Positions 516 to 55,427 are shown, counted from the whole stretch's first letter. The stretch is DNA of 63,971 nucleotides, filler included, from Kipferlia bialata (GCA_003568945.1; 3 parts of 2 records of this genome joined end to end with filler, not necessarily neighbours in it), one strand, 5' to 3'. Notes: generated from the sequence alone by a model not told the origin. A program made the numbers and translations.

Positions 516-748
516 CTCACTTCTTGAACCTATATCCGAGACCAGTAGAGTCCTCTATTACGGTAGACATACTCACTTCTTGAACCCACATGCGAGCCCT
601 GTGCTGGGGTCCTTGACCACACACCCCGCCCCCAGCATCCTGTGTCCACCCTGTATAGGCAGGGAGAGCATGGCATGCACAACTGACTCAGTCCCGTAGA
701 AGGGGTGCGCAGCCACCTGAGTTAGACACACACATAAATAATATAGTA

Positions 749-790
<42 letters not shown>

Positions 791-3700
791 TACTATTGAG
801 GTATAGAGAAGTAGAAGGGGTGCTCGGCAACATGAGTTAGACACACATTTTATGCTAATCGTGTACTAAATCAAGCATTTGAGCAAATCAACTTGTCCTC
901 CGTCAGCACATGCCAATCATACAATAATGGCACACCATGTCATATATGAATATATGAATATATGTATATATATTAGGAGACTGTGTACACACCTTGTCCC
1001 CTGTCACCCCGTGCCCCAGTGCTATGACGGGCTGGGAGTCAATGACCATGGCGGTGGGCCTGTCCTGTTATAAGTACATATGTATATGTATATATATATA
1101 TATATATATACATTTCCATGTTATACTTTCATATATATGATGATATATGTGTTCACATGACCATGGCGGTGGGCCTGTCCTGTTGTCAGTCTAAGTGAAT
1201 ACTAGTACATGTCTATGGGTATGTATATACAATACTGTAAACATCACTGACCTCAGATGGCGATGGTCTCTCTAGGCAGTATGAGTACACTCTCCCTGTG
1301 CCGCATGGCATAGTAGGCAGACCAGACACATCGTGTGGGAATACCCACTGGGTACTGTCCATACCCAGTCTGACAGGGTGGAAGGGGGTGATACGGAGGC
1401 CACCTGGGGTTAGATATCAGTATAGATAATAGTACATAGTACTATCGAGATATATCAGATATAAAGTTGTATTAGGGTGGCAGGGGGTGATGCGGAGACC
1501 ACCTGCTGTTAGGTAAAATATTATTGTAATAATAGTATCATTGAGATATATTAGATACATTTCATTGGAATATAATGTATAAGGGTGGAAGGGGGCCACC
1601 TGGGGTTGGCATAAACCATCGACTGTACATGGAGCATATGGTACCTGGGAACACCACAAAGTGCTTTGATGTAATGATTCGTATATAAAAAACACATAGA
1701 TACAGAACATGCTAGTTGGGATATATATTTGTGAAAAGAATACCTGGGAATACCACAAAGTGCTCATAGGCAGAGGCTTCAGTGGACAGGACATGCTCGA
1801 CCTGGGGAGGTGAGACAGCATGAAAATACTTATGGGTATATATAAATGTAGATGTAGCCATATCATCACATATAGGCAGATGCCTCTGTGGACAGGACAT
1901 GCTCAACCTAGGGAGGTGAGACAGGGATGTCAATAGAATTGATTAAGAGTCATAAAGCTACATCCATGCACTAGTATACCTTTGCCGTCTGCCCCCCTGG
2001 CACCATGACCTCTGTCATGTACATATAGTAGTAGATATACATAATACCAATATAGAATTATTCCAATACCTACATTCATATGCCTACCTTAGCTGTCTGT
2101 CCCCCTGGCACCATGACCTCTGTCCCAGGCACAACCTGGGGTGAGAGTATGATAATACAATTATACATAAATATGCATATACATATACAGCATGTGTATC
2201 TCTGGGGGTCAAGACATGTGATATACAGTATGGTAATTGGATGATGTAAACAAGTACACTCGTAACCCAACCCGGAGGTATAAGTATGGTACACATGGAT
2301 GATATAGCAAAGCAGCCTGGAGGAGTAAATGGCGACTGACATGTAAACACTAGTGTTGAAATACCTCCTGTGCCCTGCACAATGTGCCATCTCTGTAATA
2401 CATATATAAATATAAATATCTCTCTCTCTCTATATATATATATATGCATACATATGCACATACACACCTCCTGTGCCCTGCACACTGACCCCTCTGCCAA
2501 TTCTCTCTCTCTCTATATATATATTAATATCTATGTATAGATATGGTATATGTACAGTACCTCCTCTGCCCTGCACACTGACCCATCTGCCAATTCTCTC
2601 TCTCTATATATATATATAAATATCTATGTATAGATATGGTATATATGCATACCTCCTCTGCCCTGCACACTGACCCATCTGCCAGTGCCACCTTAGAGTC
2701 ACAGTGCACACAGGGGCCGGCACTAGAGGGTGAGTCTAGAGATATAGTATAGTATAGTATATATATATATATATATAGATAGATAGATAGATTGAATAGT
2801 CATCTGAGTCACAGTGCACACAGGGGCCGGCACTGACAGTGAGTATATGGGTAGAGAGTCATACAGTCAGAAAGAGAGAGATAGAGAAAGAATATATATA
2901 AACGTGTATATACATACAGTCTCCATACCTCGTGTTGAATGCCGCGGCACTTGTCATCCTGACCCCATATATATACATGACATAGTCACATACTACTATT
3001 TGAATATGGTAGTATATATGAATGTATATACATATATATATATATATATAAGTCCTCACCTCGTGTTGAATGCCGCGGCACTTGTCATCCTGACCCCATG
3101 GCTAGATGAGGCAGCAGGGGGGGGCATCACGTTGAAGGTGAGGTTCTGGCGGTCAGAGCACTACGTATATAGTATACACAATATGAAAGTGATAGAGAAT
3201 AGACAAATGTACTCATATATATAGAGAGAGAGGAGGCATCAGGGGCATCACGTTGAAGGTCAGGTTCTATGGGGTTAGAGCACTCAGCAATTACCCATTC
3301 ATGTATTTGCTATATATATACACAAGAACTCAGTGGCCATCATATATAGTAAACTCAACAGTGAAAGAACCCAATAATGAAGGTAGACCCACCTGCTGCC
3401 TGACAAGCTCTCTATGGAGCTCTCCCCCGTATGCAGCCAGGGACTTGTCCTTGTGGTTGTTGCACACCTGGGGGGTGAAACTCCGCGGTATTACCAAAAC
3501 TCTACACGATAGTAACAGACGTGCAATCATCCTTTGATGAGACATCATATAGCGTTTCTATAAGATAAACCTAGGTCCTCACCTCTCTGCAGTGGCTGAG
3601 GCATATGGAGTACAGGTAGTGCCTGCCCCACCTGTCCATGAGAGATGCATATCTACATACACAGCATAAATAGCTAAAAATGAGGAGAACATGATATAAT

Positions 3701-5898
3701 ACTGGAAGAGCTAGGTAGTTTCATACTCTGTCTGCCCCACCTGTCCATGAGACGTGTGTGTGTATACATATATATTTATATATATTGACACTGTCTGCCC
3801 CACCTGTCCATGTCAGTATCAGTATCATACAGATACTGATACTGATACTATATATATGTATAGTAGTGTATACACATATGTTTGTCTGCCCCACCTGTCC
3901 ATGTGCTCGGGGTCAAAGGCGAGGGACATCTGCTCCTGGGGCATTAGATGTATTCTATAGAATTCTTATATAACATAGTAACTATACATCATACCTTGTA
4001 GTCCCTGTCCAGCTGTGCCAGCCACACCATGGGTCCAGGGTATATTAATATGAATACATATATATATATTTATATATATTATATATGAGTATATACATCA
4101 TACCTTATAGTCCTTGTCCAGCTGGGCCAGCCACACCATGGGTCCTGTCTCATCTAGGGACTCGCCCTGCCGGCCAGTGACCTGGGGGGTGAGATGCATG
4201 CTAATACACACACAGTATGAATATAGAATAGAGCTCTGTTAATACCCTGCCTGCCACTCACCTGAGTGAGGGAGGTATTCACACATAGTAGTGCTCTACA
4301 CATAATAGTACAATAGGCATATTGTTATATACACTTAACCCTCACCTCGGGTATTGAGTCAGCCATATGCTGTGCACACATACTCATACACACACACACA
4401 CATATATATATATATGTATAAATGATATCACGCCACAAATACCTCTGGGACTGAGTCTGCCATGAGCTGTGCACCCTCTTCTATACTCATACACATATAA
4501 ATATACATATATTGATATGGTATACAGATGATATATATATGTATACATACACACTACACACACCTCTGGTATTGCCTCTGCCATCAGCTGTGCGTACTGT
4601 TGGGCCAGAGGGGGGCAGGGGATGTGGACGTTCTGGGGTGAAGGTGGTGTATAGTATTGAACCTATCCAGGTATCCTGATTACATAGCCGAATTGCATAT
4701 ACTATAACCATATACACATACCGGTGGTGCGTTGTGCACTGCCTCCAGGATGGCACTGCACAGGCTGTGTCTGGGAATGAGGGGATAGGTGGAGAGACAG
4801 ATATGTGTATAGATAGATACACTATACTATACTATATATATAACTATACTATATATATACTATATATGGACTGCCTCCAGGATGGCACTGCACAGGCTGT
4901 GTCTATGGGGTTAGATGGAGGATACATATATATATATATATATACTATCACTATGTATATACAGAATGGACAAGAGGTGATGAGTGGAGAGACAGATATG
5001 TGTATAGATAGATAGACTGTATGTACTATATATGGACTGCCTCCAGGATGGCACTGCACAGGCTGTGTCTGGGGGGTTAGAGGGTGTATGGACTGATGCA
5101 TATATATGTATATAGATAAATAGACTCTATAAATACACATCTATACTATATGGACACATCAAGAATGGCACTTCACAGGCTGTGTCTGGGGATTAGAGGT
5201 AGACTTTCTCTTTAAGTCTAAAATGTATATATACATACACACACCTCACGTAGTGCCACAGCTGAGCCTTTGTGTCTGGCACTGTTGACCTAGACGCATT
5301 GACAGGGACAGACATGACTGGGGGGTGAGAGGGATAGTATCTATCCCACTATGATGTATTACTTATGTACACTCCCTCTCACCCTGGTCTGGCCTTGTGG
5401 GCAGTCTGTATGTGAGGGATACATTGTCTCCTCCCAGTGACACAGGCACACTCCTCGACTGGCCACACAGCACAGCACCCAGGGGGATCTAGACATGAGG
5501 GGAATAGTATAAGAGGGAATAGTATATATATATGTGTGTATATGTGCAGTACGTGACAAGCCACAGAGGACAGCACCCAGGGGGATCTATGGGGTCAGCA
5601 CACATCCCGGAGGGTAATGCAACTAATAACGAATTGAGACTGTACTCCCATGCCTTACTCCCCCCTGTAGTTGAAAGTGTTTACAATCCAAGTATGATGC
5701 ATCCCTACCTCCCCCCCCTTGCACCCCTCGAGTGTGACGTCTGTGGCCATGGTGCACAGGGCAGCTGGGTCAGTATATAGTAGTGGAATGAGAGCGAGAG
5801 AGATAGCGAGAGAGGGAGAGAGAGATAGAGAGACATCGTTGGCCATGGTGCACAGGGCAGCTAGAGGTTAGAGTATAGAAGGGAAGATAGACAGGTAG

Positions 5899-5932
<34 letters not shown>

Positions 5933-6080
5933 GTCTGTGGCCATGGTGCACAGAGCAGCTGGGGTGAGGGTATAAATATACATATATACAGAATACTGTA
6001 TATAGTAATAATAGAGAGAGAGAGAGAGATAAAGAGTTATCTATGGCCATGGTGCACAGGGCAGCTGGGGGTGAGGATGC

Positions 6081-6123
<43 letters not shown>

Positions 6124-8427
6124 CCCACCTGCCGTGCTGTGTACAAATGCTTCTTCCTCTCTCTCTCCTTCTCTCCCTCTCTCGCTCTCTCTCTCTCTCT
6201 CAATACATACGTATATATATACCTGCTGTGCTGTGTACAAATGCCGTGCCCACAAAGGAGGAGTCTGGGATGTAGGTGTACTGGCCTGACCTGGGGTGGG
6301 AATGGGTAGACAACTATACGCTAAACACATATTAGTATATAGATATATATATATATATATCCATCTCACCCCATCTGTGCCAGGTCTGCCAGCAGGTGTG
6401 TGTTGATGTTGCCGTAACCAAAGGCAAAGGTGTCCACACGGTAGCCCTGGGCGTGAGTCAAAACGCGAGATGGCACCGATACTTTGTATATACTCATGTA
6501 GATACATACTATCTCTACCTTAGTCTGTGGGTACTTTGTGTGGTATGACTCCAGCACTGTGTCTGAGTCTGGGCCCTCGTTGGGCATGCCATCGGTCAGG
6601 ACACAGATCTGTCTGAGAGTAAGTATCACGATATATATATGGGACTATAGTTATATATACTATAGTCCCGTTGGGCATGCCATCGGTCAGGACACAGATC
6701 TGTCTGGGGTGAGGAAAATATATACTATACACTGCACCATAATATATATATATATATATATTAGTACTTGGGCACACCGTCGGTCAGGACACAGATCTGC
6801 CTAGGGGTGAGGATAATGCACTGCTTACACTGTAAGTATATATATACAAACAAAAATCACACCCACCTGACACAGTCCTTCGGTCCCTCCATGGCTATAC
6901 ATATACACACGTATATATGTATATATATACAAATATATACATATATATATATATAGTCATACATTCAAATGAATTAGGCAAACATCGTATATCATCCCAC
7001 CTGACACAGTCCTCAGGTCCCTCCATGGCTATCTGCAGAGCTGTCTGGAGACCAGTGCCCATGGCAGTGCACCCACCGCAGGACAGGGACTCTGGGTGTG
7101 AGGGTACAATATACATATACTACATATACTATATATATACATTGATAGAGTCCCCATGGCAGTGCAGCCACCGCAGGACAGAGACTCTGGAGGGTAAGTG
7201 TATCATATATGTATATATTAATATATAACTCATGCATACATATATCCATGACACGTGCAGGACAGCTACTCTGGGTAGAAGGTCATGCATGACATATCTA
7301 TGTATATCCTACTTGCATTATGTACACACTTGATGCATATATAGTATCCACATACATGGTCCTGCATACCTATCTCCCTCTCTGCCCTCTCTATGCCCCG
7401 ATGCTAGTACATCCATCAATACCCATTATCTATATACTACTACACAATTGACTACTGATACCTATCTCCCTCTCTGCCCTCTCTATGCCTCCCTCCTCGA
7501 TGATGATATTTGCATACATATATATATATATACCTTTACTAGGTATTTCATGTACCTATCTCCCTCTCTGCCCTCTCTATCCCCTCCCTGGTAGTCCTGG
7601 TGGGTCTCAGGGCCACATGCACTCGGGAGTCAAAGCCGATGACAGAGACGTAGTCTACAGTTAGTAAACAGATACATATATATATATGTATATATATAGA
7701 ATATGGGTTACATGCACACAGGAGTCAAAGCCAATGACAGAGACATAGTCTGGAGTGAGTAAACAGATACATAGATAGAGAGATATACATACAGAGAGAG
7801 AGAGAGAGAGTATAGGTTACATGTTCACGGCAGTCAAAGCCAATCACAGAGACATAGTCTGGCATCAGAATGTACGGGTGGAACATACATACGATACACT
7901 GCCTTGCATACAACAATCTCCATGCATATAATCAGTATCTTCAGCACACATGACTATGAATGAATATACACATGCAGCAGTACACATGAATACTCACCGT
8001 TGTCGCCCAGGAAGTTAGACACTGCCTTGGCCCCCAGCTTGACAATGTCCAGGAGGTTGTTGGAGAACTCCTGAGGGTAAATGTATAATGGATATATAGT
8101 ATTACATATATATATAGATATGTGTGTTATAACAACAGATCTACCATACGCCATACCTCCAGCTCATTGTTTGCATTCCTCTTGGTGGCAGACCGGGTCA
8201 TGCTGCCTGGGTCAGTGCATGGTTATACACCAGACATATAGATATACTCAGATATAATGTGTCAATATATATAGAATATATATATGTGTACATACACTGG
8301 GATACAGTAATCCACCATTAAATATTCTAAACTCTGACGATACAAATACCTGATGTGTCCAAGAGTAGGATACAGTGCACAGTCGTGTACATATATATGT
8401 AAATGTATATAATGTACATATGATTCA

Positions 8428-8463
<36 letters not shown>

Positions 8464-10330
8464 TTGGGTATATACACACCTGACGTGTCCAAGAGTAGGA
8501 CACAGTGCACAGTCGTGTGCATATATATGTGAATGTATATAATGTACCTATGATTCAGTATATATATATATATATATCATAATGTACACACCTGATGTGT
8601 CCAGTAGCAGCACACAGTGCACGGGCTGTCTGTGTTGGGCAAGGGACTCCAGGGAGATGTTGACCTGGGGGTTGGTGCATATTCAAAACTACAGTATTAT
8701 ACACATATATAGGAGAAGGTTACCTATACATGTTTTGACCGACACATATACTGTATATACACATCCTTATGTACTCACCAGTGTATCCGGTGCCTCACTC
8801 CTCTCCCCCACTGTCTCCCTCAGCTCCATGGGGGTGTGGGTGCACACAAGCAGAGGGGTGGCTGGGGTTACTCAGGATAGCTACATACATACATGCACTA
8901 GTTATGATATATCTGTTCCTGGACAATGTGTTCATGCAGTGTATACATTTATATAGCTATTTGTATATACATATGTATAATGTATATATCACTGTACCTG
9001 GTGTGTCTGTGCCTGGACAATGTAAATATAGTGTCCGATTCTAATACATCATATATATATACATATACTCGATGTTCCATATATAACACTGTACCTGGTG
9101 TGTCTGTGCCTGCACTGCCCTTCCTGTCTCCCATCCACTCCTGGGGGGTCAGAGGAGACTGTATAAATATGTACATGGGTATACATGTGTACATGTACAT
9201 AGATATTTGTGTGAAACTGATACTTCTCTGCCTGTCAAACATCCACTCCTGGGGGGTCAGAGGGGTACACTTACGTGTGGTTGTATAGCTGAACACTGTA
9301 TCCATATGTCTTCCACTTCGGTGTCTGCCTGTCTGTATATACACGCTGTCTGTATATACACGTACTGTATGAATGCATCAAATGAATATGTAAATACTCA
9401 CTGTATACAGTATATCTGTATGTACCTCGATGTCTGCCTTGAGCTGTCTGTACATATGTGTTTATCAACATACATGTATCCATATCTATCCTAGCTGTCT
9501 TGCACATATATACGATATGTATACAACTATGACACATGTATCCATACCTCGATGTCTGCCTTGAGCTGTCTGTGCACACACACACACACACCCATATATA
9601 TATATGTGTATGTAAATATATTATGATTGTCATATTAACAGCATACACACATGTACAGTGTAATGAATCGATATACCTCGATGTCTGCCCTGAGCTGTCT
9701 GTTGGGCAGCAGCTGGGCTATGGTGCACGCAACCTAGGGTGGGTGTCACATTGCTAGGCTATACAGCATCATTAGTCCATCATAATGGTGTGGCAGTCAT
9801 GTCCATCACAGAGACAGAAACATGGTTAATGAGACTGCCATTCTCTATGCCAAGAGGGCATTCATGTGGATGTGTGACTCTTCCACAAGCAATAGTACTA
9901 ATTTGTAACACACCCATATCCACCCTACCTGTGTGGGAGTTGTTGGGTTCTCTCCTAGCCACTCCTCAATGGCAGCCCTGGGGATAAGGAGGTAATGCAT
10001 AGAGTTCATTATCATATCTCTCATGCATTCCTTTATAGATACACACACTTATGTATATGGATGAGCCACTCCTCAATGGCAGCCTTAGGGGTAAGGAGGA
10101 AGAGGGATACAGTTAATACTGATACATACATATGTATATATGAGTTACCCCATGATGGCTGATAGTCCCATATTATTAATATAGACTATAATATAGATTA
10201 TTTGCATATAGAGAGTGTAGATTCATTATATACAGAGAGAGACTGAGTACACATACCTCTCGTATGAGTGTCCATCTGCTGCCAGCACAGGGTCATCCAT
10301 GAGGGAGCCCTGATGTTAGTGGGCATATAT

Positions 10331-10383
<53 letters not shown>

Positions 10384-10500
10384 AGGAGGGAGAGAGGGAG
10401 GACAGGGGCATCCATGAGGTATCAATGGGGCTAGGGTATGTGTATATGTGTGTATAAGAGAGAGAAAGAGAAAGGAAGAGAGAGAGAGGACAGGGTCACC
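516..10500 (-). repeat. Intronic direct repeats that are partial copies of adjacent exon ends (exon echoes) separated by TA/CA/GA-rich filler
   Basis: Examples: 1158-1184 repeats 1042-1068; 1872-1907 and 1642-1665 repeat parts of exon 1744-1801; 2363, 2466 and 2559 repeat the end of exon 2653-2722; 4869, 5033 and 5152 repeat the start of exon 4722-4770; 5831, 5930 and 6044 repeat the start of exon 5709-5764; 8350-8380 and 8480-8510 repeat the end of exon 8592-8664. Confidence 0.95.
573..10309 (-). CDS. U-box + VWA + Vwaint + Hint (Vint-type, hedgehog-related autoprocessing) protein; 29 exons visible, 5' end probably lost at the contig break
   Basis: Hand-spliced GT-AG exons in transcript order: 10257-10309, 9929-9977, 9677-9733, 9095-9140, 8779-8861, 8592-8664, 8157-8206, 7998-8070, 7556-7654, 7001-7091, 6519-6612, 6370-6446, 6223-6290, 5709-5764, 5383-5488, 5245-5317, 4722-4770, 4564-4632, 4104-4181, 3895-3935, 3583-3631, 3393-3467, 3060-3145, 2653-2722, 2088-2135, 1744-1801, 1252-1403, 993-1064, 573-716. 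Total 2139 nt, phase-consistent, ending GFKK*. Motifs: U-box LMDDPVLAADGHSYERAAIEEWL...LLPNRQLRADIEEW; VWA MIDAS VLLLDTSGSM, YVSVIGFD, VLTDGMPN, VDTFAFGY, YTYIPDSSFVGTAF; Vwaint RWGRHYLYS...CNNHKD...YGGEL; Hint GP|CVHCDSKVALADGS, LRITPFHPV, WVFP, VIALGHG, AHPFYG. Confidence 0.9.
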
Positions 10501-10751
10501 CAATATATGTATAGGGATGTAGAAAGGGAAGGGAGAGAGCCGGTAAAGGCTCATGTATGAGGTAGCCTTACCCTAAGGTAACAGGAAGTGAAAAGAGATA
10601 GAGGGGGGGAAGGGGGGGGGTTGACAGAGAGAGAGAGAGAGAGAGAAATTACATACCAAGTCTATATACAGCCTGAATAGAAGTGAGGGTATGGCAGTGG
10701 AATGATGAGGGGGGTGGGGGGGGGGGGGGGGTGAGGGAATTTATGGCCCCG

Positions 10752-10851
10752 NNNNNNNNNNNNNNNNNNNNNNNNNNNNNNNNNNNNNNNNNNNNTTAAT
10801 TAATTAANNNNNNNNNNNNNNNNNNNNNNNNNNNNNNNNNNNNNNNNNNNN
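10752..10851. other. Artificial contig linker (44 N + TTAATTAATTAA + 44 N)
   Basis: Exactly 100 nt with a central all-frame stop palindrome, flanked by poly-G runs. Confidence 0.97.
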
Positions 10852-10907: not shown

Positions 10908-13098
10908 TACTCCTGTGGCTCTATCGTACTAAGACTCACGTACATATGTCCTGAGGTCTCTGTTGAACACCCGGGACACCCCACTGGCTCCTGATGTAAG
11001 GCATGGATGTAGTATGAATATAGAATAGGAGCTCATCCCAATGGTCACTATGTAGCACAGGTATACTGATACTGATACTGACACCCCACTGTCGGTAACT
11101 GTCCAAGGTACTTGGCCCCACGAGCCTCAAACAGAAGAACGCAACAACTTATGTATGTAGCACTGTTATGGTGAATTCTGGTAAAGTGCTATTACTAATC
11201 ACTGAGTGTTGAGTAACTTGCCTTCCTGGCGCCACTTCGCAAGGGGCGCTGGACCACGAGCCTCAAACAGAAGAGTAGACATGCGCGGTCAATGGGCCAC
11301 CCACACACAGTATGCAGTAGGACACTGGACTCCCTTCACAACTACAGCTCACTCCAGTCCTACTCCTGGACTCTGACTCTCTCTCTCGAGGATTACAGCT
11401 GTGCTGGTCACTCTGTTCACAACCACAGGTCACTCCAGCCTCGCTCGTTGTACTCTGACTCTGAAACAGCAACCCTTGCCGAGGCGCATTTCCGCTAGCG
11501 AACAAAGGGTTGGCTGTTTTTGAATTCTGATCAGTCAGTCTATTCGTGTTTATCGACTAGTCTGGTACGCGGCCCAGGAGGGGTCTGGTACATTGTTAAA
11601 GTTTCAGTAAGGGTACGTTTGTCGACCCAAATACGGTTGGAGTGTCTATCTGCCGTGGTCTCCGTGAGAAATAGTAGATCAAATATCTAGTGGACAAATC
11701 TTCCATGGCTCTGTAACTTAGCCCGAGTTCTTTGGTCCTCATATTTAAGAGGTGGCGAACAAAACTTAACCACCTGGTATCACAGAAGCTGATGGATCAG
11801 AGATAGAAACAATCAGTCGAACATACGATCATTGGCGGTACGCATAAGCAATTATAGAGAAAGACACGCAGTCAGAGTAGCAGTACTTCCTTCAGGATAG
11901 TCTACTTGTATCCTTCTGAAATGGGAAACTGAGACATCACACGAAGCCCCTTCGGCCACTTCCATGGCGACCGGTTCAGTGCAACAGTTGTCAATGGTTG
12001 TAGAGTAATTGTCAAACGTAGTGCGTACAGTAATACAAGTTCACTTCTTCTGGTTGACTTGACAGACTGTCGCTGACAGTCATTGACTATCTGTAGCTCC
12101 TTGTCCCCTCCACAATGGGTAGTCATTGTAACGTTACAGTACTGTGCATTAAGGGTGAATTCTTAGAGTAACAACAATTCGGACTCAGGACACTCTATGG
12201 CAGACTGAGTTGTCACTGACAAGTCAGTTGTGACAAACTTGTCAGCCAATCTGTTGGAAAGGTAGGTTCCTCCATAGCATCCGAATCATTTTGATCATCA
12301 GCCTTCATGGCTGTCAATCTGATTGTGGGTCCCGTAAGCTCCTAGTACACTAAGTGAAGCATATTTACATGCTATAGAAACCAATTGACCGAACGCCAAA
12401 TGAAATCGCCTGAGAAACTGTGAGAGCATCTTGGACGAAGGTCTTCAGTAGATCATATTTCTGTTCGGATATACATGTATTTGGTGCCAGGGAGGGACAC
12501 CTGGCGAGTATTCTTGAGACTCTGGAGTCCTAACGACAGTGTATTGCAAGTTCTTATAAAAACATGTCGTGTCACGGTATGTTCACCCTTTTGGACCATA
12601 CCGATACAAGATCGATAGAAATAGCTACGTTGGCAAACAGAAGGTGTGTAGCTGATCACTACTACTAGAGGCGTAACTCGACAGAATGACAGTCAGTAGT
12701 GCATAGGGTATTGGATTGATACTTCGGCACACTGGGAACTCCAATTTCCCCTTCCAACTTAGTGGACCTTCTAGCCGCTTACGGCTAATGCTTAACACCT
12801 ACTTCAAGCATTCATGTCAAATTCACAGAAGTGCAGTACTTTGGAAATACAAGAAAGCGATTGTACTGTGAATGGGTCTAGTACAAGAGAACTGAGGTTA
12901 GTATTCTTCATTGAAAATTGCACCCCTCCAGCCATGTATGAAGACTTCCCCAAAATATTGCCATTCTCGCGATTTCCATGGTATATACCATTCTTACTTG
13001 AAGTACGGCCAACACTAGAATCTATGTTCTTGCCCAATATCAGGCCACAATAATACAATAACAGAAACAATGAGAGTTCACACAATGTATGTGCGAAC

Positions 13099-20711: not shown

Positions 20712-23700
20712 CTAGGCAGCGGCCTCTGCAGCCTCCACAGGTGCGGTGTGCAGGTACTCCATGAGCTCGGTCATGAAGGTCTCCATCACAGCCAGAGTCA
20801 CCCTCAGGGCCCAGGGCCGGGGCTCCATGGTAGAGCCGCGCTCCACCACCACGCGCACAATGATCTCCCTAGCCGCAGCCGGCAGCTCCTCGTTCCTGGC
20901 CAGCATCACCAGGAGGGGCACGAGGCGTCTGCTGTACAGGTTGGGGTAGCGAAGCTCGTTGCAGAGGCCGGACATGAGGAGGTACCTGCCCTCGTCACTC
21001 AGCTCAGTCAAGAGGGCAGACACAATCACTAGCTGGCTGGACACACGGTTGTTGGTACGGGTGATCCTGATTCCAATGGCCTCCAGCAGCTCTCTGTCAC
21101 ACACCCCACCTGGGCAGAGGTGCTGGTCGATGATGGTGCGGATGTAGGGGGTGAGGGGAGGGGAGAGGGCACTACCAACACGCATGGCGGCTCTGTACAG
21201 CTCGAGCAGGGTGGCTGTGAGGGCCTGGTTGCGGTGGATGGCAGAGAGGCCTGCAGAGAAGATGGACACGTGCTTCAGCGACTTGAGGCTGTCCAGCCTG
21301 AGGTTGACATCAACGTGGGGCTCCTCCACTCCAGGTGGGACTGCTGACAGCACAATGTTCCTGATGAATGCGGCACCGGGGGGGATGGCGTCTGAGATGA
21401 CAAAGTGCTGCATGACAAGGAACATGGGGTAGTCGGTGCGAAGGGTGTTGAGGAGCTGGCACGTAGCAGTGTACACGTTCTGCATCTCCGTGCCAGCCAT
21501 TGGCACCTCGGTGGCCAGGTAGGGCTTGAGCAGGCCCAACAGCTTGAGGAGCAGCATCAGGTACCCGGACTGGGCATGGGCAGGGGCTACGGCATAGCCC
21601 CCGAAGGAGTACGAGTCACCAAGCATGCCCCTAAGCAGGTCTGGCTGGGAGATGAGGTTGAGGTACAGGTGCACACGGCCTGGGGACAGGATGGAGCCGT
21701 AGAAGCGGCACATGACGCTGAGGAGGGGCACCCTCAGGTGCATCATCTCTGGCCTGTCCTGCATGGCATGCCTCACAAGCTCCCGGCACATGAGGGAGCA
21801 CAGCAGCTGGGCCCTACCCCCACCGTTCTGGGTGGTGACCACGGTGTTGAGGGCACGGATGAACCGCGAGAACTCCACGCACCGCCTGTACGTGAGGGTC
21901 TCCTCCTGGGTGAGGTTCGACAGGGGGCGTCCCTCCTCCGAGGTGACACCATGCACCCAGGCCAGGAGGGCGGGGGACAGGTCTGACACAGACACAGCCT
22001 CCAGCGTGTCAGCGGTGTGGCGGTGCACAAGGCCTGCCAGGGCAGCCACTGCGTCCATCTGGCTGTCGAGGCTGTCCTGGCCAGTCACCTTCTTGGGCAG
22101 TACCAGGGCCATCACCTGCCTCAGGATGTGGGACCAGATGTGACTGGTCTTGGCGGCAGTCGACCCAAGCCCACAGGCCTGCAGCCGGTGCACAAAGTGA
22201 CCTGTCAGGGCGTGCCTGAGGGCGTGGGAGGCAGGCATACGCTTGTAGGCGTGCACATACTCACTGAACACGTCCCCTGCGTCTCTGAGTGCCGGCTGGT
22301 CTGAGGCGAGAGAGGCCACCATCCGGACCCTGATAGTAGCCGAGTTGTCCTTCTCATCAGAGAGCACAGCATCGAAGCCAAGCACACCGGCCACACCCTG
22401 GCCTGAGCCTGTGAGCAGGGGGTAGGAGCCTGGGCTGGACAGCGCAGAGGAGGGCATCAGCTCGAGGCAGGACACAACGTCACAGAGAGCAGCAGACACC
22501 TTGGGGGGTGGCCTGCCCTCTGCCCTGCTCCTAGACACAGCCTCTACAGTGCGCACGGCAGTCTCCACCAGATACTCGGAGGCACACTGCCACTCAGTGT
22601 GGGAGCACCTCAGCAGAAGGCCAAGGGCGTTGGCCTGAGAGCCGGGGGGGCTCACAGCAGTGTTGAGGACGAAAGACGACACGCACACGGTGAGGGAGAG
22701 AGGGGGAACAGCAGATCCCACTAGGGCATCCACGAGGTGCTTCCTGAGGGATGTGTCGATGGCCTTGGCAGGAACGGCACCCTCGTTGACAAGGGCAGAC
22801 ACCAGGTGGCACAGGGTGCTGTCCGAGATGCTGCCCTCCTCGGTGGAGGCACGGGCGGCCACCTCAGTCTCGGCCAGAGACACGAGGGCCTCTAGGTAGT
22901 GCCTGCCATACTGGGCGCAGATACCCCCAGAGCGGGTGTGTCTGAAGGCTACCAGGGCACTGACAGCAGTGGACACATTGAGGAGACCGAAGGAGCCGGG
23001 CTCACCAGCAGCGGCTGCCTCGGCCTCTCCCTTGGTGATGACCTCCACTGCTAGCTTACCCACGGCCTGGGTCTTGCGGGCCCACCTGTTGCAGGCATAG
23101 CGCAGCTTGTGCAGAGATACGAGGATGGGGTGCTCGGAGGACAACATGGAGACAGAGAGGGTCTGGGGCTGGGAGGAGAGCTTGTTGGCGGTGGCCACCT
23201 GGCCCATGAGGGACGTCCACTCGGAGATGGGGGTACCCCTCTGGGTGTCCCTGTCGTGGAGCAGGGCAAGCATCCTCTTGCGGCGCAGGAGGAGAGAGGC
23301 CCCGACTGCGGCCCATGCGTCTCCTTGTTGGTGCTGGCTCTGACCCACGAGGGTGGCGAGGGTGGCCTCGATGGTGGGGGAGGAGGAGGGGCCGGTGGGG
23401 AGGAAGGACAGGGCGAAGAAGGAGGGGTTCGTGGCAGAGAACCTGCTGTCCTGGTGCAGTGCCATGCGGGTCTCGACAGACACAGACTGGGCAGAGGATC
23501 CATCCAGATAGGGGAACTCTGCGAATGTCTTAGTGTGCCTGGCCCTGTTCACCTTGACCCTGCTGGCCTCGGTGATGGTGGGGTGCTCGCTGTGCCTGTG
23601 CAGGATGTGTAGGTACACATCAACAAGGGGCAGGGAGGGCACATCGTTCCTAGGGGCAGAGGGCTGCACACCGTAGAGCAGCTCGGGAGGGAGCATGGCG

Positions 23701-26700
23701 GCAATGCGAGGGGGCACCACACGGTCTGTGGCAATGTCTGTCCTGCTGAACTTGTTAGTCACATGGGCAGCGGCGTTACCAAGCTCTCTGATGACCTCGC
23801 TGACCCACTTGTCGACCACAGCACGCAGGATGGGGCCAACCAGGCCCATGGACTCAGGCAGGGCCCTGACAGCCAGGAGCAGGGTGTCCAGGACGTGTGC
23901 ACGGAGGGGGTGCAGCAGAGAGGCAGCACAGAGGGAGGATGCAAACACGTACACAAAGTTGGTACGGATGGTCTGCAGCCGAGGGTCGTTGCCCTGCACC
24001 ACCCCATCTACGGTGGACACGGCCACTGCAGCTGCGCGGTCGAGGGCGGGCTCTCCCATCCTAAGTGCATCCACCTTGAGGCGCTCGAGGGCCCTGAGGA
24101 GGCCGGGGTTGGCGAGGAGGAAGGCAGACACGTACATGTCGGGCACAAAGTGGGACTCCTTCTCGGTGGTGCCAGAGGCAGGGCCAAACCCATTCAGCAT
24201 GAGGGCTGGGTTCTGGGTGACGATGGAGGGGAGCACCACGTCGATGGAGCCCGGGGTGGCCTGGGACAACACAATGCCGGTGGAGTGGGGGGAGAGGGCC
24301 TCGGGCTCCTCCTGCTCCTGACGGGCCATGGGCACGGCGGGGAAGTCCTGGCCCTGGGGGGAGCGCACTGGCTTGGGAGTGAAGGAGACCCTGGGCTCAG
24401 CGGGCACAGCTGCCTCGTCTGCAGCACTCTGGCTGAACACACTCAGCTCAGGCACCTGTACGTGGCTGGGAGTGAGAGGGGGTATGCAGGTGTGTGTCAC
24501 ACTGAATGAGACTGCATTGTTCCTATAGTACTGGCCAATACCTGCGGCGTGGGGTGTGGACTGCCTTGGGGACGCCCTCGTTCTTGGCGGCCTCAATCTC
24601 CTGGGCAACGTCCTGGGGTGAGACAGGGAACTAAAAGAATCACTAAAGTATGTGTACTCAGTGTATATCCACTGCCCATCTGCCCTACCTTCCTCCTGCC
24701 CTCCATGACCTCCTCGTCGTGGGCGTGCTTCTCCTGGGCAGTGCTGAGCCCCTTCATCTCGCTCTTGATGAGGTTGATGTCGCACACCATGGCCCAGTGA
24801 GTCTTGGAGTCAGTCTCCGGGTACTTCTGCCTCACCCTCTTGATGGCGGCCTCCATCCTCGACACCACGTCCAGCACCCAGCTGGAGGTGGGCCGGATGA
24901 TCTTGTTCTCCTTGCCTTGCAGCAGTAGGTGCTTGGCAAAGATGACAACAAGGGCCAGCCTAGGGGGAGTTGCGTTCTCAGACCTCTCGATCAGCATGGG
25001 GAGGTCCAGCTCGTCTCTGAACACAGGCCTGTCCCTTCTGATGATGGACACACTCAGCCACGTGGCAATCTGGTGGAGCCTCTTGGTGACCTGTGCCTCT
25101 ACATCACTGGCGGCCTCTCTCCTCCGCCTGTCCGCCTTAGTCTTCTTGTCCTCAGACCCCTTGGCCTTGAGGCTCTCCCCAAAGGCATCGCTGAACATGA
25201 CATCAATGCATGCACTTAGAACGTCGAAGGTCACACCACGCACAACGCGAGAGAAGGGGAGCATGAGGGACTGGTCTGACTTCTGCCACGTGCCCAGCCT
25301 GCCCAGCAGGTGCTGGGGGAGGGGGAGCTCGGATGAGAGGTCGCCCAGGGAGGCCGACCCCATGTTGTCGATGAGCGACAGGAGCTGGGGGTGGTGGTTG
25401 GCCTGGGGTAGCAGACGCATGTCGAGCAGCTCCTCGGCAAGGAGCACCCAGTACTGGGGGGGGATCAGGGTGAAGAGGTCCCGGGCCTTGCTACCTGCGT
25501 TGTCGGGGGTCAGCTGGTTGAGTGTCTGCCTGACCTGGGTCAGCTTTGATGCCGACAGCACCCCCTGCAGCTTGGGTCTCTGCTCCACAGGCATGGCCCT
25601 CTCTGCCTCAGCAGCCACCAGGGCCAGGGCAGAGGCATTCAGGGCATGGCTGGGGAGGAGACACAGCATGCGCGTCTGCAGGTTGTCGGAGTCCCTGTCC
25701 GGCACGTCCCTGCCTATCAGGCTGTGGAGGGTGAACACAAGGCCGGTGTCAGCCTTGACACAGGACAGACGCAGCAGAGAGTTGACATAGCCGCGTGCCT
25801 CAGTGAAGCGGTAGGGCCTGGGGGCCACGGATGCCTGGGCCTTCTCCCTGCGCTGCTGGAAGAGGGCAGCACTGGCCAGCTGTCTCAGCAGACGCACACC
25901 CCTGCCCACGGTCTGGTCCTGTGCAGTCAGGAAGGCATACATGTGGCTGAGGTACATTCCCACGGATGGGGGGGTGAGGAGTGACCGGATGTAGAAGGCA
26001 CCCAGCATCTCTGCCATCGACTGGTCCACCTCATCCGACCATGCGTTCTGCTCCTCGGCCTCCAGGGCATTGGAGGGCCACTCCGCCATGATCTGCAGGA
26101 TCTGCAGGTTGAGGCCCGTGCGGTACTTGTTGAGGGCCAGCCTGGCCTGGTCGGTGTCTGCATCCCCTCCCTCACTCTCTGTGTCCATCTGCAGCTGGGA
26201 CTGGGCCCTCTGCACCGCCTCCTCCACAGACAGACCGTCGTCTAGCAGGGCAGCGCAGATGTCGTCTGTGGACTGCAGCACCGCCTCCAGCTCCTTGGCA
26301 GCCAGGTCCGCCCTCTGCCTCTGCTGCAGTATGGTGGCCACCTGCCCGTCCTGACTCAGGATACGCTGGGTCAGACCTGTGTAGAGCAGGGCGGTGGTGG
26401 TGTCGTTGGCGGCGGCAAGGGACGCCAGACAGTGACCGGAGTGGGGCTCCAGCACCCTCCATATGTCAGCAACGTGGGTGGGGCTGAGCTGCACAGAGTG
26501 TGGGGTGGGCTCGAAGAGCTTGCCCAGCTCAATCACATCTCTGGGCAGGATGGTCTCCAGCTGCTGGGGAGAGAAGAGGCGCTTGGCCAGGAACATGAGC
26601 ACCGACTTGAAGAAGGCCTCGCCGTCCAGCACTATGCGCTGGCCAATGACCAGACCGATGTCGGCCAGGCCGTTCTCTGCAGCCACCAGGGTGGCCTCGA

Positions 26701-29599
26701 GGGCAAAGGGCACGAACTCATTGTTGACCAGGGACCCCACCACTCCAATGTCACTGGCCAGAGAGACCAGGACAGGGAGGCCGCTGGGGGACATGCGGTA
26801 CACGACACAGAAGCCTCCTGGGAGGAAGGCGGGGGCCCTCTCTCTGAATGTGAGAATAGATTATAACAAAACCGCCTTAAAACTTAACAACAACAAGACC
26901 CCCGTACCTGATGAAACCAAGCACAGCCTTGACAGCCTCAGCTGTGGCAAGGGCCACGTGCTCTCCGCCCCTAGCTGCCTGGTCCTTGGCCCTCTGCAGC
27001 ATGTAGGACACGTGGTGCTGCAGGATGGCCTGCACGCACTGCTCCCCTATCTGCCTCAGCAGCTTCTGACCCTCAACGTCGAGGTCGTCTGTCAGCCTAG
27101 TACCGTCATTGGGTACACAGGATGCCAGTGTGACAGCCAGCTGCATGGGAACCTGAGAGTAAGGGACAGTAGTCAGAGAAAGAGAGAGAGGAAGGGGGTA
27201 TAGTTAGAGACAGGAACAGTATTCAAAGACATGTACCTGCCGGATCAGCTTGTGGAAGATCTTGTGCACGGCGCTGTCCTTAGACACACCAGGTGTCACA
27301 CCCATGCGGAGCAGAGCCCTAACCAGAGGACTGCAACGCCAGAGGAAGGTGAGGTGGGTGAACCGGGGGGGCAGGGCGATGCCGTTACACACGGCCTGTG
27401 CGGCATCGGAGAGGGACATCTCCGTGTCCTCCTCTGCTACACCCTCGGCAAGCACCTCCCCTGCTGCGGCCCTGCGCTCTCTCTCCACGAGCATCAGGAC
27501 GGAGGGGGCGAACTCGGACACACCTGTACAGTCGAGGGCCTCAGCCACCACCTTGATCCTCTCCAGTCTGGTGTGGATGCCGGTCAGGTCCCTCTGCCCT
27601 GCCACCTGGTCGATGGCTATGGCTATGTGCTGGGTCAGCTGGATCACGGCAATCAGCAGCTTCATCTGGGCGTCTGCGTTGGCAAAGGGCAGGAACAGAG
27701 CATCCAGGGGGAACCGGCCAGTCTCTGGCTCCTGGGGGGCTGTCTCAGGGCTCTGGCTGTGCTTGGCCCTCTCCTGGGCGATCTTCTGCCTGGTGGCCGA
27801 GGAGGCGAAGAACACGTTCACCATGAACTCGACCCCCTCCTCCATGTGCTGCACAGTGCCCTCGGGGGGGAAGAGGCCGGGCCTGTCGAGCTGGGCCACG
27901 ACCTGGGACCAGTCGATGCGGTACCCGGCATGCATCTCGTGCACAGCCAGGATGACGCCGAGGTCGGCACTGAAGGGGTCGGCCAGGAGGTCGGGTCTGC
28001 GCCTGATCTGGTTGCCATCGTTCTCTGCAATCTGGTCAATCACGTGCTGGGGGAAGGACATCTGCCTGGCGATGCTGACTGCCGTCTCGCTGACCTGTCT
28101 GCTCTTGGGCCAGTGCAGACACACGGCATGCAGCATGTCAGACACCACAGAGGCGGCGATGGGCTGCAGGTTGAACTGGTTGTACTCCCTCAACACAGCC
28201 TGGGTGAGGGGGGGAGAGGTAAAGGGGGATAGAACGACATAACTCCTACAATGATAGCGGCAATCACTCACCTGCAGGAGAGGCCTCGTGAGGGCTGGTC
28301 CGTGCATCTCCACCAGCCTCACCAGCACCTCGGCTGAGGGCTTCTCAGCTGTGTGGGCAACTGCAGGCTGGGCAGCACCTAAGGGTGAGAACAGGATAAG
28401 AGAGAGAGAGAAATACAGGGGGGGGGAGGGGGGATGCGTGACCATCCATGGATATTTCTCACCTCTGTTGTATGAGGCAGCATCGGGTACCATGCCGTAG
28501 GGGGATGGAGTCATCCTGCGTATCAGACTCGAAGAGATGAGTATCACACGGAATTCCAACAGCACTTCGATATTCCCACTTCGCAGGCAACCCCTACCTG
28601 TGGGGGTGTACTGCGTATGGGGCCTGACTGTAGTCCATAGGGACCTGGCCTGACAGTGAGAAAAAAGACTGATTGAGATGGAAGGGACAACAAAGAGGCA
28701 TAGTACAGTGTACATCCCACTCACCCTGCTGGGGCTGCCTCTGGGGCTGTGTCAGGGGTGCCCTAGCCTGGCCCTGGCCCTGGTGTTGCCGGTGGCGCTT
28801 GAATGCCTAAGAGTTAGGAGAAGTAAATACAACTCACATATACACACACATGCTCCTTCACATTGAGCTAACCAAGCACAATGTATGTGCCGTTTTCCCC
28901 ACACACACATATATATATATACATATATACACACACACATATATATATATATATATACCTGGAGGGCATTGAGGGCCGGTGCACTCAGGTCCTGAGGGTT
29001 GGAGGCCTGGGAGTGGGCCACACGCATGAGAAGCTCCTTCGCTGGGTACGATATGGGCTGCTCTGGGCTGTTGGCCAGGTAGTACAACGACACGATCTGC
29101 AGCGAGGGCGTGAGGTTGATGAGCACCGTCTGGATGGCCCTGCCCATGATCTCAATCACCCTCCGGTCCAGCTGGGCAGTCGGCATGTCCTTGCCACGCT
29201 GCTGGTACTGCTTCTGGGACTGCAAGGCCGCACGCCTCGCAGACATGTACATCCCCTCCATACCGGCCCTCAGCAACTCTCCACAGGGCTCCACAGACAC
29301 AAACTCTGTCACCATGTATTCAAGCACAGTGCGCAGACGCTGCTGTGCTGGAGACCTCTTCAGGAAGATCAGCTCCATGATCAGCTGAACAACAATCTGG
29401 AACACACCCACATTCTGTCTGATCATCTGAGGGTGAGAGGGAGAGGGAGAGAAGAGTCTCATTGACAACACACCTGGTGGAGTGACCCGAGAACGGCTTT
29501 GTATTCCGTCTCATTAACCTCTTTCCTGGTCAGGGACACCAGAAGCTGACTAACATGATTGCTGATGTTGGTCACACTATGCTGGTGAGGCCTTTCCAT
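20712..29599 (-). CDS. CNOT1: CCR4-NOT complex scaffold subunit NOT1 (divergent)
   Basis: C-terminal hallmark LSDEGRYLLMSGLCNELRYPN...REIIVRVVVERGSTMEPRPWALRVT, LRTDYPMFL and IRNIVLSAVP; MIF4G-like LNQLTPDN; IDWSQVVAQLDRPG. ATG at 29599 (MERPHQ...VSQLLVSLTRK), first exon 29474-29599, very long 3' exons. Confidence 0.92.
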
Positions 29600-35436: not shown

Positions 35437-35536
35437 NNNNNNNNNNNNNNNNNNNNNNNNNNNNNNNNNNNNNNNNNNNNTTAATTAATTAANNNNNNNN
35501 NNNNNNNNNNNNNNNNNNNNNNNNNNNNNNNNNNNN
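35437..35536. other. Artificial contig linker (44 N + TTAATTAATTAA + 44 N)
   Basis: Same 100-nt structure as 10752-10851, after a long poly-C run. Confidence 0.97.
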
Positions 35537-37063: not shown

Positions 37064-40000
37064 TCAGTCTCTCCCCTCCAGCAGGTGCCTGACCACTCCT
37101 AGCACACCCTCACCTATAACAGAGGGTATGGGGAGGGGAGGGGCAGAGCGGACCTGGGGTGAGTCAATAGGATGTCTAGGTACAGGTAGAATAGAATCCT
37201 CCTACAATACTGAGACACTTCAGAGGGAGGTAGGGATGAAAGAGAGAGTGTATGTGTGTATACATACACATGTGTGTGTGCGTACCTCCCCCCTCTGCAG
37301 TCTGTCTGTGACATATGTCAGGATGGCAGAGTCAGACGGGAACACCCTGAGAGTGAGAGGGAGAGAGGCGGGGAGAAGAGGGTTATATAACCCTGGGTGC
37401 CATACCTGACCACACTAGTCTGGGTAGTGTTGGCGGCACTCTCTAGCAGTCGCTGCAGATCCTGGGGGTCAGGCACACAAACTGACAGATTACCACGTCA
37501 GGGTGAATACATAATACATATAGTAGAGAATGTATGATTGTACGTGTTAACAGAGTGGTCTGTTGTATACTCATGTGTGCGTACCTCTCCAGTATCTCTC
37601 AATATGTATAAATATGTATATATGCATATGTACCTGTCCAGTGCATGGGCCATCGTTCAGAGAGTACGGGTTGGGGGCCTGGGGTGAGGAACAGGTGATC
37701 AATGTGAATGTGATCACAATAGAGACGTGTCTATAAAAACCATACACCACGCACTATTCCTCCATGCTTATCCGAACGCGTCAAGAAATTATATATCTAA
37801 AAAAAATTGTACTATACTATTCGAGACAATGAATCCCACCTGTCTGAACGTGTCGTCCCAGTGGAACTCGTCCACCAGAGTGACCCTGCCCTGAGTACCC
37901 TCACTCATGCTGTCATAGTGGAACACCTCCTAGGGTGAGTGTATAGAGGATATATATAGGGAATATAATGTGGGGAATAGTATATACTGTTTTGGTGGAA
38001 CACCCCCTGGGGTTGAGACGGTATACATAGAGGGTATAAATGGCAAGCACTAGTACTATCTATCCACCACCACACACCTGCATGTTGATATCGTAGCACT
38101 CCGCCCTGTCGTGGTGTGATATGGTATGCACCAGTGTGGCCAGGGGCTTGTGGTCAGCCTCCCCTGCCTCCTCTCCATCTGCAACAGGGACAGTGGGGGC
38201 AGTGCTCTGCCTCTGCCTCTCTCTCTGCTCCTCCTGAGACAGAAGGGTGAAGAGAATGGCAGCGGCCACCTCCTTCACTGGGTTGCCCACACCTGCAAAG
38301 GCAAAGAGGTGGTAGCAGATGCTGAGCTGGGGGTCAGGTACGGAATGGTACAACGCTGCTGCATTCGTCTTTAACCAATGGAAGAATACTAAACCATATG
38401 AAAAAGAGATATAGATGAATGGATACCATAATTACTGTGTCGCACCATGCTGACTGGGACCACCACGTCATGGTACTCATAGACACAGGCCACGGGGGCA
38501 GCATCCATATCATCATCATCACTCAGAGGCAGGGCTGGGGGTTAGGTGGAGGGGGGGGATATAGTAACTATTTTGGAGACACCTCCACCCATACCTGCGT
38601 CTGTCTCATCCTCCTCCTGCAGCACCCTGTACTTACGCGTCTCCTGGCAGAGAGTCTCACTATATACCTGGGGGTGAGTAAGGCATAGAAGGGTCAATCA
38701 AATGTAGTATAGGCTACTTGCGTTGGCACAGAGGAGGTGTGAGCAAGAGCAGCTGTACACATTCATATCTATGACACGCAGGCGACGAACCGTGTGAAGG
38801 GATGGCTCTCTCCTCAGAGCCCTCAGCAACAGCACCAGGACAGACTTGACCTGGAGGGTGAGACAAGGATGAGACACAGTGGGACAGAGAGAGAGGAGCT
38901 TCAAACATCCAAGGGGTTAGGAACCCTAAGATCACTCTCAAGCACTAGTATATACCAGCCTTACCTGAGCCTCAGCGAGTGTGGGCACTGCCTGGCCCTC
39001 TGCACTCTCTCTCTCTCTCCTCTCCCTGGTCTCTCTCTCCTCCTCCGTCTCCCCCTCCCTCTCTGGGGAGTTCTTCACAACAGACGAGTCATTGGACACC
39101 TCATACTTCCTGAGGGTAAGGGAGAGTGGAACACAGTACCCGTGAGTATATACACTACCACACACACCTTACTGCCTCTATGCACATGAGAGTGAAGTGT
39201 CTGTTGGAGGCCAGCCAGGCCCCAAAGCCTGAGGTGCGGGACAGGTGCACAAGCATCTAGGGGTATGAGAGAGAGTATTAAGGGGGATATATCAGAAAGA
39301 CAGCCACACTCCTCTAGCACTATCATTGCAACTAGCTCCATTCTATCAACGCAGGTGTGATATCGGTGTGACATGGTGTGTGTGTCATATGTGTCAGTAC
39401 CTGCAGTGCCAGCCCCACCGACCCCTGTCTGAGTGCCATGGGTAGGACTATGTCAGTCAGGGCAGCGGCATGGGTGCGGGACAGATGCTCACACAGCACA
39501 GGCACCTGGGGGTTAATAGGATAAGTGTGTACATATCATATGTATGTACATATCATATGGATGTACATATCACAAGGATGTACATATCATATGGATGCTC
39601 ACACAGCACAGACACCTGGGGTTGGAAGTGTACTCATATACATACAGCACTACACAAGTACCTTCATGAGGTAGAGCAGTGCCTGGAGCAGCAGGTCGTG
39701 TCTGTCCCCCCCTGCCCCCTCTGTCAGTGCCTGTATCACACTGGAGATGGCAGCGGTGGTGCGGAGGGGGATGACAGGCATGTGGGAGGTGAGGTACACG
39801 TACCTGAGGTGAGGGTACAAATGATACGGGGAGCTCAAGTGATGAATGATGAACCATCTACTGGTATGATACTCCCACGTACTCACTGACTAGGAACCCG
39901 TCCAGCTCCACAATGGCACTGTCCTGGGGAGTGTCTGCTGGAGTGGCCTCTCCTCTGAAGGGGTGGGCAACGTTATAGAACACAATGGAGGCCTGAGAAT

Positions 40001-55000: not shown

Positions 55001-55427
55001 GGAGGGGTGGGGCGGGTGGTGTCCTTGGCACCAGTCTCTTGGCTAAGGGTGGGGGCCATGCTCAGGTCGGGGAAGGCAGGGGCAGAGGGGGCCTCAGGGG
55101 CCTGGGGTGAGTAGCACATACAGAAATACAAGAAATAGGTCAGTTGCAAATTGACACACAACAGAGAGGGACTATGCATAAACCACGTCACCTGTTCCCC
55201 TGGGAACTGAGCACCATACAGAGACATAGATAAATAGCTACATCTACATATATACACTCACTATATACCGGCAAATATATGCTCATAATATACTACGATG
55301 GACTATAACTATGGTATCTATATGTATATGTATATCTATGTGTACCTGCTCCCCTGGGAACTGGGGCCGTGTTGGTCTCTCTGGCATGGCACTGAGCAGG
55401 TCGAGGGAGTGGGAGGGGTCGAAGGGT
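37064..55427 (-). CDS. RME-8/DNAJC13-like endosomal protein, highly divergent, very many exons, 5' end in the gap
   Basis: IWN-type repeats: HTSPTLVWHEETRQ|ELVHALQEELDLFT|...CWNYWEFSVQY...|NILVGPFFLSHLL (about 47900-48455) and IFGADEYTRYDAVWGTDMRQHL...PKVTYPSLQTEMRVGGIYIRHLL (about 45790-46150). Helical-repeat exons continue to ...VVRHLLEGRD* at 37064. That the Pro/Ser/Thr-rich 53260-55427 part belongs to the same gene is inferred from continuous splice sites. Confidence 0.7.

Follow-up and report, generated by a model that had tools for sequence, protein, structure and literature searches.

Intronic copies of exon ends in KIPB_000386

The window analysed here, a stretch of 63,971 nucleotides (nt) from Kipferlia bialata that joins parts of two records with filler, carries on its minus strand the gene KIPB_000386, whose introns hold numerous short copies of adjoining exon ends, here called echoes. 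K. bialata is a free-living fornicate whose genome paper favours an ancestral intron richness (PMC5874029). The exons of KIPB_000386 measure 41-152 nt, and its 28 introns are all GT-AG in the gene model. The spliced frame is open and identical to the deposited K. bialata protein P0001; the product has 709 amino acids counted from the first methionine and contains, in order, the domains U-box, VWA, Vwaint and Vint (PF04564, PF00092, PF14624, PF14623), all above the Pfam cut-offs.

An echo contains either the end of an exon with its donor (donor-type) or an acceptor with the start of an exon (acceptor-type). Every exon was aligned to its neighbouring introns with codons ignored, which gave 47 matches with a score of at least 10. 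The cut-off was taken from 756 non-adjacent exon-intron controls, 0.26% of which scored at least 12; eight matches were removed, six scoring below 12 and two lying away from any splice site, and the remaining 39 echoes, from one gene of one strain, are used in all tests below. They occupy 19 of the 28 introns, with one more beyond the stop codon, and span 516 to ~10084, farther than the 1872-8622 of the initial annotation. Eight introns are without echoes, seven of them 65-115 nt long, and intron 3894-3632 is counted apart. The features are as follows, all on the minus strand.

572..10309: host gene KIPB_000386, 29 modelled exons, open spliced frame
10064..10084: acceptor-type echo of exon 9977-9929, AG lost
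9222..9573: donor-type echoes 9548-9573 and 9426-9451; acceptor-type echo 9222-9248
8998..9018: donor-type echo of exon 9140-9095; abuts the 9222-9248 half, the two giving the whole exon
8350..8510: donor-type echoes 8480-8510 and 8350-8380 of exon end 8622-8592
7710..7858: acceptor-type echoes 7819-7858 and 7710-7749 of exon 7654-7556; inner breakpoint identical
7149..7489: donor-type echoes 7462-7489 and 7370-7398; acceptor-type echo 7149-7186
6669..6898: donor-type echo 6867-6898; acceptor-type echoes 6768-6800 and 6669-6703
5832..6150: donor-type echo 6129-6150; acceptor-type echoes 6040-6064, 5924-5958 and 5832-5860
5560..5586: acceptor-type echo, both differences silent
4867..5185: acceptor-type echoes 5159-5185, 5033-5068 and 4867-4902
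4245..4472: donor-type echoes 4443-4472 and 4346-4375; short acceptor-type echo 4245-4261, below the cut-off and uncounted
3995..4036: donor-type echo, two silent differences and K/R
3632..3894: intron whose ends copy the flanking exon ends; splicing inferred from the frame and the deposited protein
3242..3266: acceptor-type echo, one silent difference
2806..2968: donor-type echo 2929-2968 (40/40 identical); acceptor-type echo 2806-2832 (27/27); fillers unalignable
2365..2592: donor-type echoes 2561-2592, 2468-2499 and 2365-2392, with 0, 2 and 4 differences moving outward
1872..2016: donor-type echo 1980-2016 (3/3 silent); acceptor-type echo 1872-1907 (4/4 silent); spliced past in the RNA contig
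1474..1665: donor-type echo 1645-1665; acceptor-type echo 1474-1502; spliced past in the RNA contig
near 1582-1599: deleted acceptor-type echo, uncounted
1157..1179: acceptor-type echo, 23/23 identical to exon start 1064-1042
811..831: acceptor-type echo, AG lost, two silent differences and one non-silent
516..546: echo of the last codons, followed by donor-like GTGAG as in the used copy

Donor-type echoes lie downstream of their own exon and acceptor-type echoes upstream, so that an intron reads as donor units, a core of ~45-140 nt, and acceptor units. The units are direct tandem repeats of a part-exon with its adjoining splice site, 56-166 nt long (median 106), consisting of an exonic part of 21-42 nt (median 29) and a filler of 29-130 nt (median 75). 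Each echo touches a single splice site and covers 0.14-0.77 of its exon. Two short exons, 9140-9095 and 1801-1744, are each represented by an acceptor echo and a donor echo that meet end to end and, to within 1-2 nt, make up the whole exon. A general model of split-exon insertion was rejected, as such abutting halves occur at only these two exons and others have acceptor echoes alone.

Silent divergence, splice signals and breakpoints

Across the 39 echoes there are 63 unique nucleotide differences from the used exon, 44 of them in third codon positions (p=3e-9 against one third). Among 58 changed codons 38 are silent (66%; 0.655), a share that stays at 0.64-0.71 under four other threshold and trim settings, and the ratio of non-silent to silent divergence (dN/dS) is 0.15-0.21, stable over five settings. 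The initial annotation had roughly tallied two-thirds or more silent differences by hand, and the codon-blind alignment upholds that estimate. All seven pairs that it cited are present: five differences, all silent, separate 8480-8510 from 8592-8622, and its counts hold for 1872-1907 (4/4), 1980-2016 (3/3), 5560-5586 (2/2), 3995-4036 (two silent plus K/R) and the uncounted 4245-4261 (two silent plus S/T). For 7152-7186 it gave two silent differences, to which a third, also silent, must be added at the last base (GGC/GGG).

Simulated divergence was passed through the same trimming as the data, with 1000 runs at each of six settings. When mutation struck the echo only, the simulated silent share was 0.25-0.27, which agrees with the quarter expected in the initial annotation; that figure is too low against a fairer null in which the used exon also gains silent changes (0.36-0.42). 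Neither null reached the observed share in any of 1000 runs at any setting, which contradicts the expectation that a spliced-out copy decays neutrally from birth and bears out the annotation's argument against neutral decay. Selection on both copies with omega 0.15-0.25 fits the observed share in 70-809 of 1000 runs. The amino-acid changes in echoes are conservative as well, with a mean BLOSUM62 score of 0.1 compared with -0.6 to -0.7 under neutrality (reached in 0-4 of 1000 runs) and with 12 of 20 scoring at least 1; a few echo residues equal those of a paralog or homolog (E551Q, E218K, R46K). Silent sites show no AT drift (14 GC>AT, 15 AT>GC), although the filler is 32% GC. CpG or transition bias was rejected as a cause, since 28 of the 63 differences are transitions and kappa values up to 8 fail to rescue the null. 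By our arithmetic, neutral decay accounts for about a fifth of the silent differences at most. The echo fragments evolved as functional sequence through most of their divergence, and we consider it probable that they formerly had a function in the gene.

The splice signals point the same way. The dinucleotide GT or AG is retained in 36 of 38 echoes, which is not significant alone. The 20 echo acceptors differ from their own used acceptors at 7.2 of 14 positions and score equally well; when a quarter or half of these differences were assigned to neutral decay, none of 2000 runs matched the retained strength. A matrix trained independently on other genes gives 4.1 for echo and 2.8 for used acceptors (p=0.30), so the echo acceptors are as good as the used ones. 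The claim that they are stronger, suggested by leave-one-out scores of 4.6 and 2.5, was dropped because the independent matrix does not make it significant. Since the acceptors have diverged yet remain intact and the exon pieces are constrained, the echoes would have worked as junctions while diverging.

These acceptors also bear on the possibility that the units arose by tandem duplication in situ and that gene conversion, often and in both directions, or deletion between echo and exon then purged harmful changes indirectly from the echoes, while fillers diverged by microsatellite slippage. Such a process requires no donor, and none was seen; identical echoes are commoner than expected, and clear in situ duplicates exist. 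Fillers can be aligned in 6 of 38 used-echo pairs, four of these being among the 17 pairs whose exonic parts differ at no more than one site; the splice-proximal 12 nt of used and echo filler are weakly related (5.8 compared with 4.2 matching). The two echoes nearest the exon in 4867..5185 have fillers related to the used filler, as from duplication in situ. Likewise, 8480-8510 and 8350-8380 have four silent changes in common and related fillers, which points to a secondary tandem duplication. However, our arithmetic puts dN/dS between the copies near 1 under conversion alone; a ratio of 0.15-0.2, as observed, would require the product of effective population size and conversion rate to lie near 1. 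The half-diverged yet functional acceptors outside the repeat would also go unexplained, and we judge conversion distinctly unlikely as the general cause.

A further regularity concerns where the repeats end. Echoes on the same side of an exon have inner breakpoints within 1 nt of each other in 7 of 15 pairs, compared with 12% across groups (p=8e-4), and their inner flanks match at 7.2 rather than 3.5 of 12 positions. The acceptor-type echoes 6040-6064, 5924-5958 and 5832-5860, for example, have different consensus-grade acceptors and a common inner CT run. Because both the inner breakpoint and the first filler bases are common, same-side echoes would derive from one founder and not from independent breaks. 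This observation weighs against one-off break repair, in which a broken end would invade a diverged allele or a lost close paralog at exon homology, copy the exon end and ~75 nt of intron, and be closed by alternative end joining, leaving the old junction as an echo. Silent bias, foreign filler and undamaged splice signals would all follow from that process as well, and it would suit the abutting halves at exons 9140-9095 and 1801-1744; alternative end joining is full or partial in metamonads and non-homologous end joining is absent (PMC8516963). It nevertheless predicts scattered inner breakpoints, and no close paralog was found. We regard it as unlikely for the series as a whole, and it may account for the founder event only. 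The strong signals are limited to the silent excess, the retention of acceptors and the common breakpoints.

Contigs provide a view of DNA and RNA over 996 nt (1155-2150) of the ~10 kb, with RNA or DNA support for 3 of the 28 introns. One DNA contig, whose source run may be the window's own, matches all of 1155-2150 without other letters, including five counted echoes; because it spans the whole stretch, the echoes there are not a scaffolding artefact. This bears on the proposal of plain tandem duplication with neutral decay, or of an assembly that joined allele fragments. Internal duplications over junctions are known, and K. bialata, diploid as its k-mer peaks suggest, was assembled from short reads (PMC5874029). 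The simulations nonetheless refute the decay (0/1000) and the contig, over its 996 nt only, speaks against the artefact; we find both versions highly improbable.

A second contig, presumed to be RNA, behaves as spliced: three introns are missing from it, each removed at its modelled GT-AG sites, and its letters are otherwise those of the window. In three exons that can be told from their echoes at 3-4 sites it has the used-copy letters only; at the third joint, where a 23-nt echo matches the start of the following exon exactly, the copy used is read from a loose end. The initial annotation had proposed a search of spliced RNA for echo-specific codons, and none occur in this one contig over the three exons, assembled contigs being apt to drop rare forms. 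The echoes might function now, either as intermediates when long introns are spliced in a nested or recursive way, or as alternative pieces that are seldom used. Their splice signals are retained, and the inner donor-acceptor cores are of normal intron size (~45-140 nt). In addition, each of the 13 exons that have a donor echo ends in AG, whereas none of the five non-AG exons has one (p=0.044, post hoc), which would permit re-splicing. Against this, codon conservation is not expected from nested splicing, each echo has a single splice site, an internal AGGT occurs in 1 of 39, and the contig has full-intron joints and used letters only. These points make present function very unlikely and also tell against the alternative-splicing cassette proposed in the initial annotation.

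The same annotation had named a paralog as a possible source. The only one found is KIPB_002567, which is 57% identical as protein and 46/52 nt identical at the one exon compared, where its letters are unlike the echo variants. A close paralog carrying the echo variants and their flanks was not found, the DNA check covering 996 nt; a search with shorter proteins gave five hits, none close; and two further paralogs suggested by contig loose ends were rejected, as both resolve to KIPB_002567 on alignment. KIPB_002567 apparently is without intron 2652-2136, its DNA contig continuing directly into the upstream exon, and intron positions thus differ within this family. An orphan strong acceptor lies at ~2201, within 2136-2652.

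Proposed exchange between diverged gene copies and probable intron gain

We favour, if only by a modest balance of probability, the view that the echoes are former working exon-intron junctions retired by unequal recombination between diverged functional copies of the gene. One DNA molecule cannot hold a junction as working and retired at once, and therefore two functional copies would have diverged. With no close paralog found, alleles remain as the donor, most likely the two homologs of a diploid. Two origins offered in the initial annotation, other alleles and a recently working exon, thus fit together, and the present-day paralog is not supported. From the architecture, the silent bias, the intact though diverged acceptors, the common breakpoints and the use of the working copy in RNA at three exons, we infer the donor, the exchange and the order of events.

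The process would begin with a founder duplication over a junction, leaving a repeat of 21-42 nt. Two functional alleles would then diverge, the repeat constrained by the protein, the splice signal by splicing, and the AT-rich filler by neither. Pairing of one allele's working exon end with the other allele's echo, followed by a crossover inside the repeat, would turn the hitherto working junction into a new echo and keep the founder's inner breakpoint. The product would combine a recently working splice site and a fresh outer part with an older inner part and diverged filler, which would explain each of the patterns described above. Tandem duplication of the sister type may also multiply units and produce those identical echoes whose fillers are related. 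Both splice sites would be available solely to the copy still continuous with the remainder of its exon, and that copy would be the one used. An echo that is fresh outside and old inside predicts non-silent changes farther from the splice site; such changes do lie farther away than silent ones (p=0.008, a test framed after the differences were known), with 16 silent and three non-silent changes within 10 nt. Changes private to farther echoes are still silent in 9 of 18 cases, and the farthest echo is more diverged than the nearest in five of nine groups and less diverged in none. As context, not proof, metamonads are without non-homologous end joining and Rad51A and rely on a modified homologous recombination system (PMC8516963).

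Several points weigh against this reading. The outer/inner split alone is not significant (p=0.28). Fourteen of the 39 echoes are without any difference, where 6.1 are expected, and these, like the related-filler pairs (6/38), look like plain in situ duplications. Nearest echoes are not significantly richer in silent changes than farther ones (29/10 and 14/14 silent/non-silent, p=0.069), and rank is not significantly related to divergence (p=0.30). Three diverged echoes of other genes in the window, read by hand with inferred frames, show two silent and four non-silent changes. Repeats of 21-42 nt are short for homologous recombination, and the founder step and the narrow size range are left unexplained by exchange. 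The model needs a silent divergence of ~0.2 between donors; a second allele was not seen in the one contig, variant-free over 996 nt, and metagenome scans found no other strain or relative, so the allelic donor is absent or already homogenised in the sequenced strain.

Intron 3894-3632 shows a related arrangement, its start copying the start of the next exon and its end the end of the previous exon. An exonic segment of 18-22 nt with AG|GT is present four times around it, the frame is open, and the coding equals the deposited protein; the three unused copies have a silent AGA where the used copy has AGG. The fourfold segment and unchanged coding suggest an intron that fits creation by tandem duplication of the AG|GT segment.

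KIPB_000386 carries junction duplications by the dozen, caught at various stages, and one of them may have produced a new intron. If exchange is correct, recombination would renew intron ends, and introns would keep a record of earlier alleles in a lineage without non-homologous end joining. A bolder extension, to which we give only a small chance, is that splice junctions turn over continually in Kipferlia, homologs filing old exon and intron ends by recombination as a dated allele series and creating introns. Were it true, junction turnover may be a main source of Kipferlia's 124,912 introns, parasitic relatives having almost none. The question bears on whether that richness is ancestral, as PMC5874029 favours, or partly recent. 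Kipferlia has a reduced spliceosomal protein set, 87 of 174 (PMC6679479), and this reduced spliceosome bypasses equally good decoy acceptors ~100 nt away.

Gene ends, neighbouring genes and known systems

At the 5' end of KIPB_000386, the RNA contig holds ~80 nt more transcript upstream of 10309, and the Pfam U-box match begins at profile position 14; a further exon is therefore probable within the N gap 10752-10851 or close to it. Decayed echoes occur at 10399-10567, and repeat pairs at 11115-11274 and 11329-11438. At the 3' end, a donor-like GTGAGT at 576 overlaps the stop codon given in the deposited model, and GTGAGG follows echo 516-546, so that the gene may continue through an additional intron to another C-terminus. 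The 100-nt gaps 10752-10851 and 35437-35536 each consist of two 44-N runs flanking a 12-nt spacer, which in the first gap, the one where its letters were read, is ttaattaattaa; it looks like an inserted, non-biological assembly or masking spacer.

Echo-like pairs are rare elsewhere in the window, with four at 36-56 kb, a region with about 50 acceptor motifs. The echo-forming process extends beyond the Vint gene, though it is far rarer there.

37907-38013, 39481-39621, 49301-49409 and 55190-55363, minus strand: echo-like pairs in other intron-rich genes, two acceptor-type and two donor-type

Intron density differs strongly among neighbouring genes. Compared with the 28-intron Vint gene, 20712-28751 on the minus strand holds long open reading frames nearly without introns, which we take to resemble CCR4-NOT subunit 1.

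The KIPB_000386 protein has all four domains of U-box/VWA/Vwaint/Vint proteins and looks ordinary; the finding lies in the gene architecture. Mutually exclusive tandem exon duplicates are likewise homologous exon copies under protein constraint, whereas echoes are part-exons (14-77% of the exon) with a single splice site, none seen in the one RNA contig over three exons. Minisatellite arrays, another comparable system, grow and shrink by unequal exchange.

Most gained introns are without a traceable origin, and the source of new intron sequence is debated (PMC3443670, PMC4974935). In the Rogers model, introns are gained by tandem genomic duplication of an AGGT proto-splice site (PMC3443670, PMC2891723, PMC3629103). 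Intron 3894-3632 resembles it in its repeated AG|GT exonic segment, its use of the first donor and last acceptor, and its unchanged protein, whereas the other 38-39 echoes adjoin existing junctions without a new intron and have AT-rich filler between copies. Internal gene duplication over an exon-intron boundary (Gao & Lynch 2009, as cited in PMC4974935), as in the potato RdRp case, also gives a tandem unit of intron end and part-exon with the extra copy spliced out. That process is a single event, often activating a cryptic site, whereas here there are 39 units in 19 of 28 introns, narrow in size, with a signal of purifying selection in the spliced-out copy and mostly unalignable fillers. Intron transfer between paralogs (PMC3443670) likewise moves intron sequence between functional copies by recombination at exon homology; with echoes the old junction stays behind, the intron position is unchanged, and a donor paralog was not found. 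In the literature available without subscription we found no account, for Kipferlia or any other organism, of part-exon copies that are anchored at splice sites, occur in series and evolve under purifying selection. The parts of the picture, namely boundary duplication, AGGT intron gain and intron transfer, are already known; what is new, in one gene of one strain, is the series of constrained echoes.

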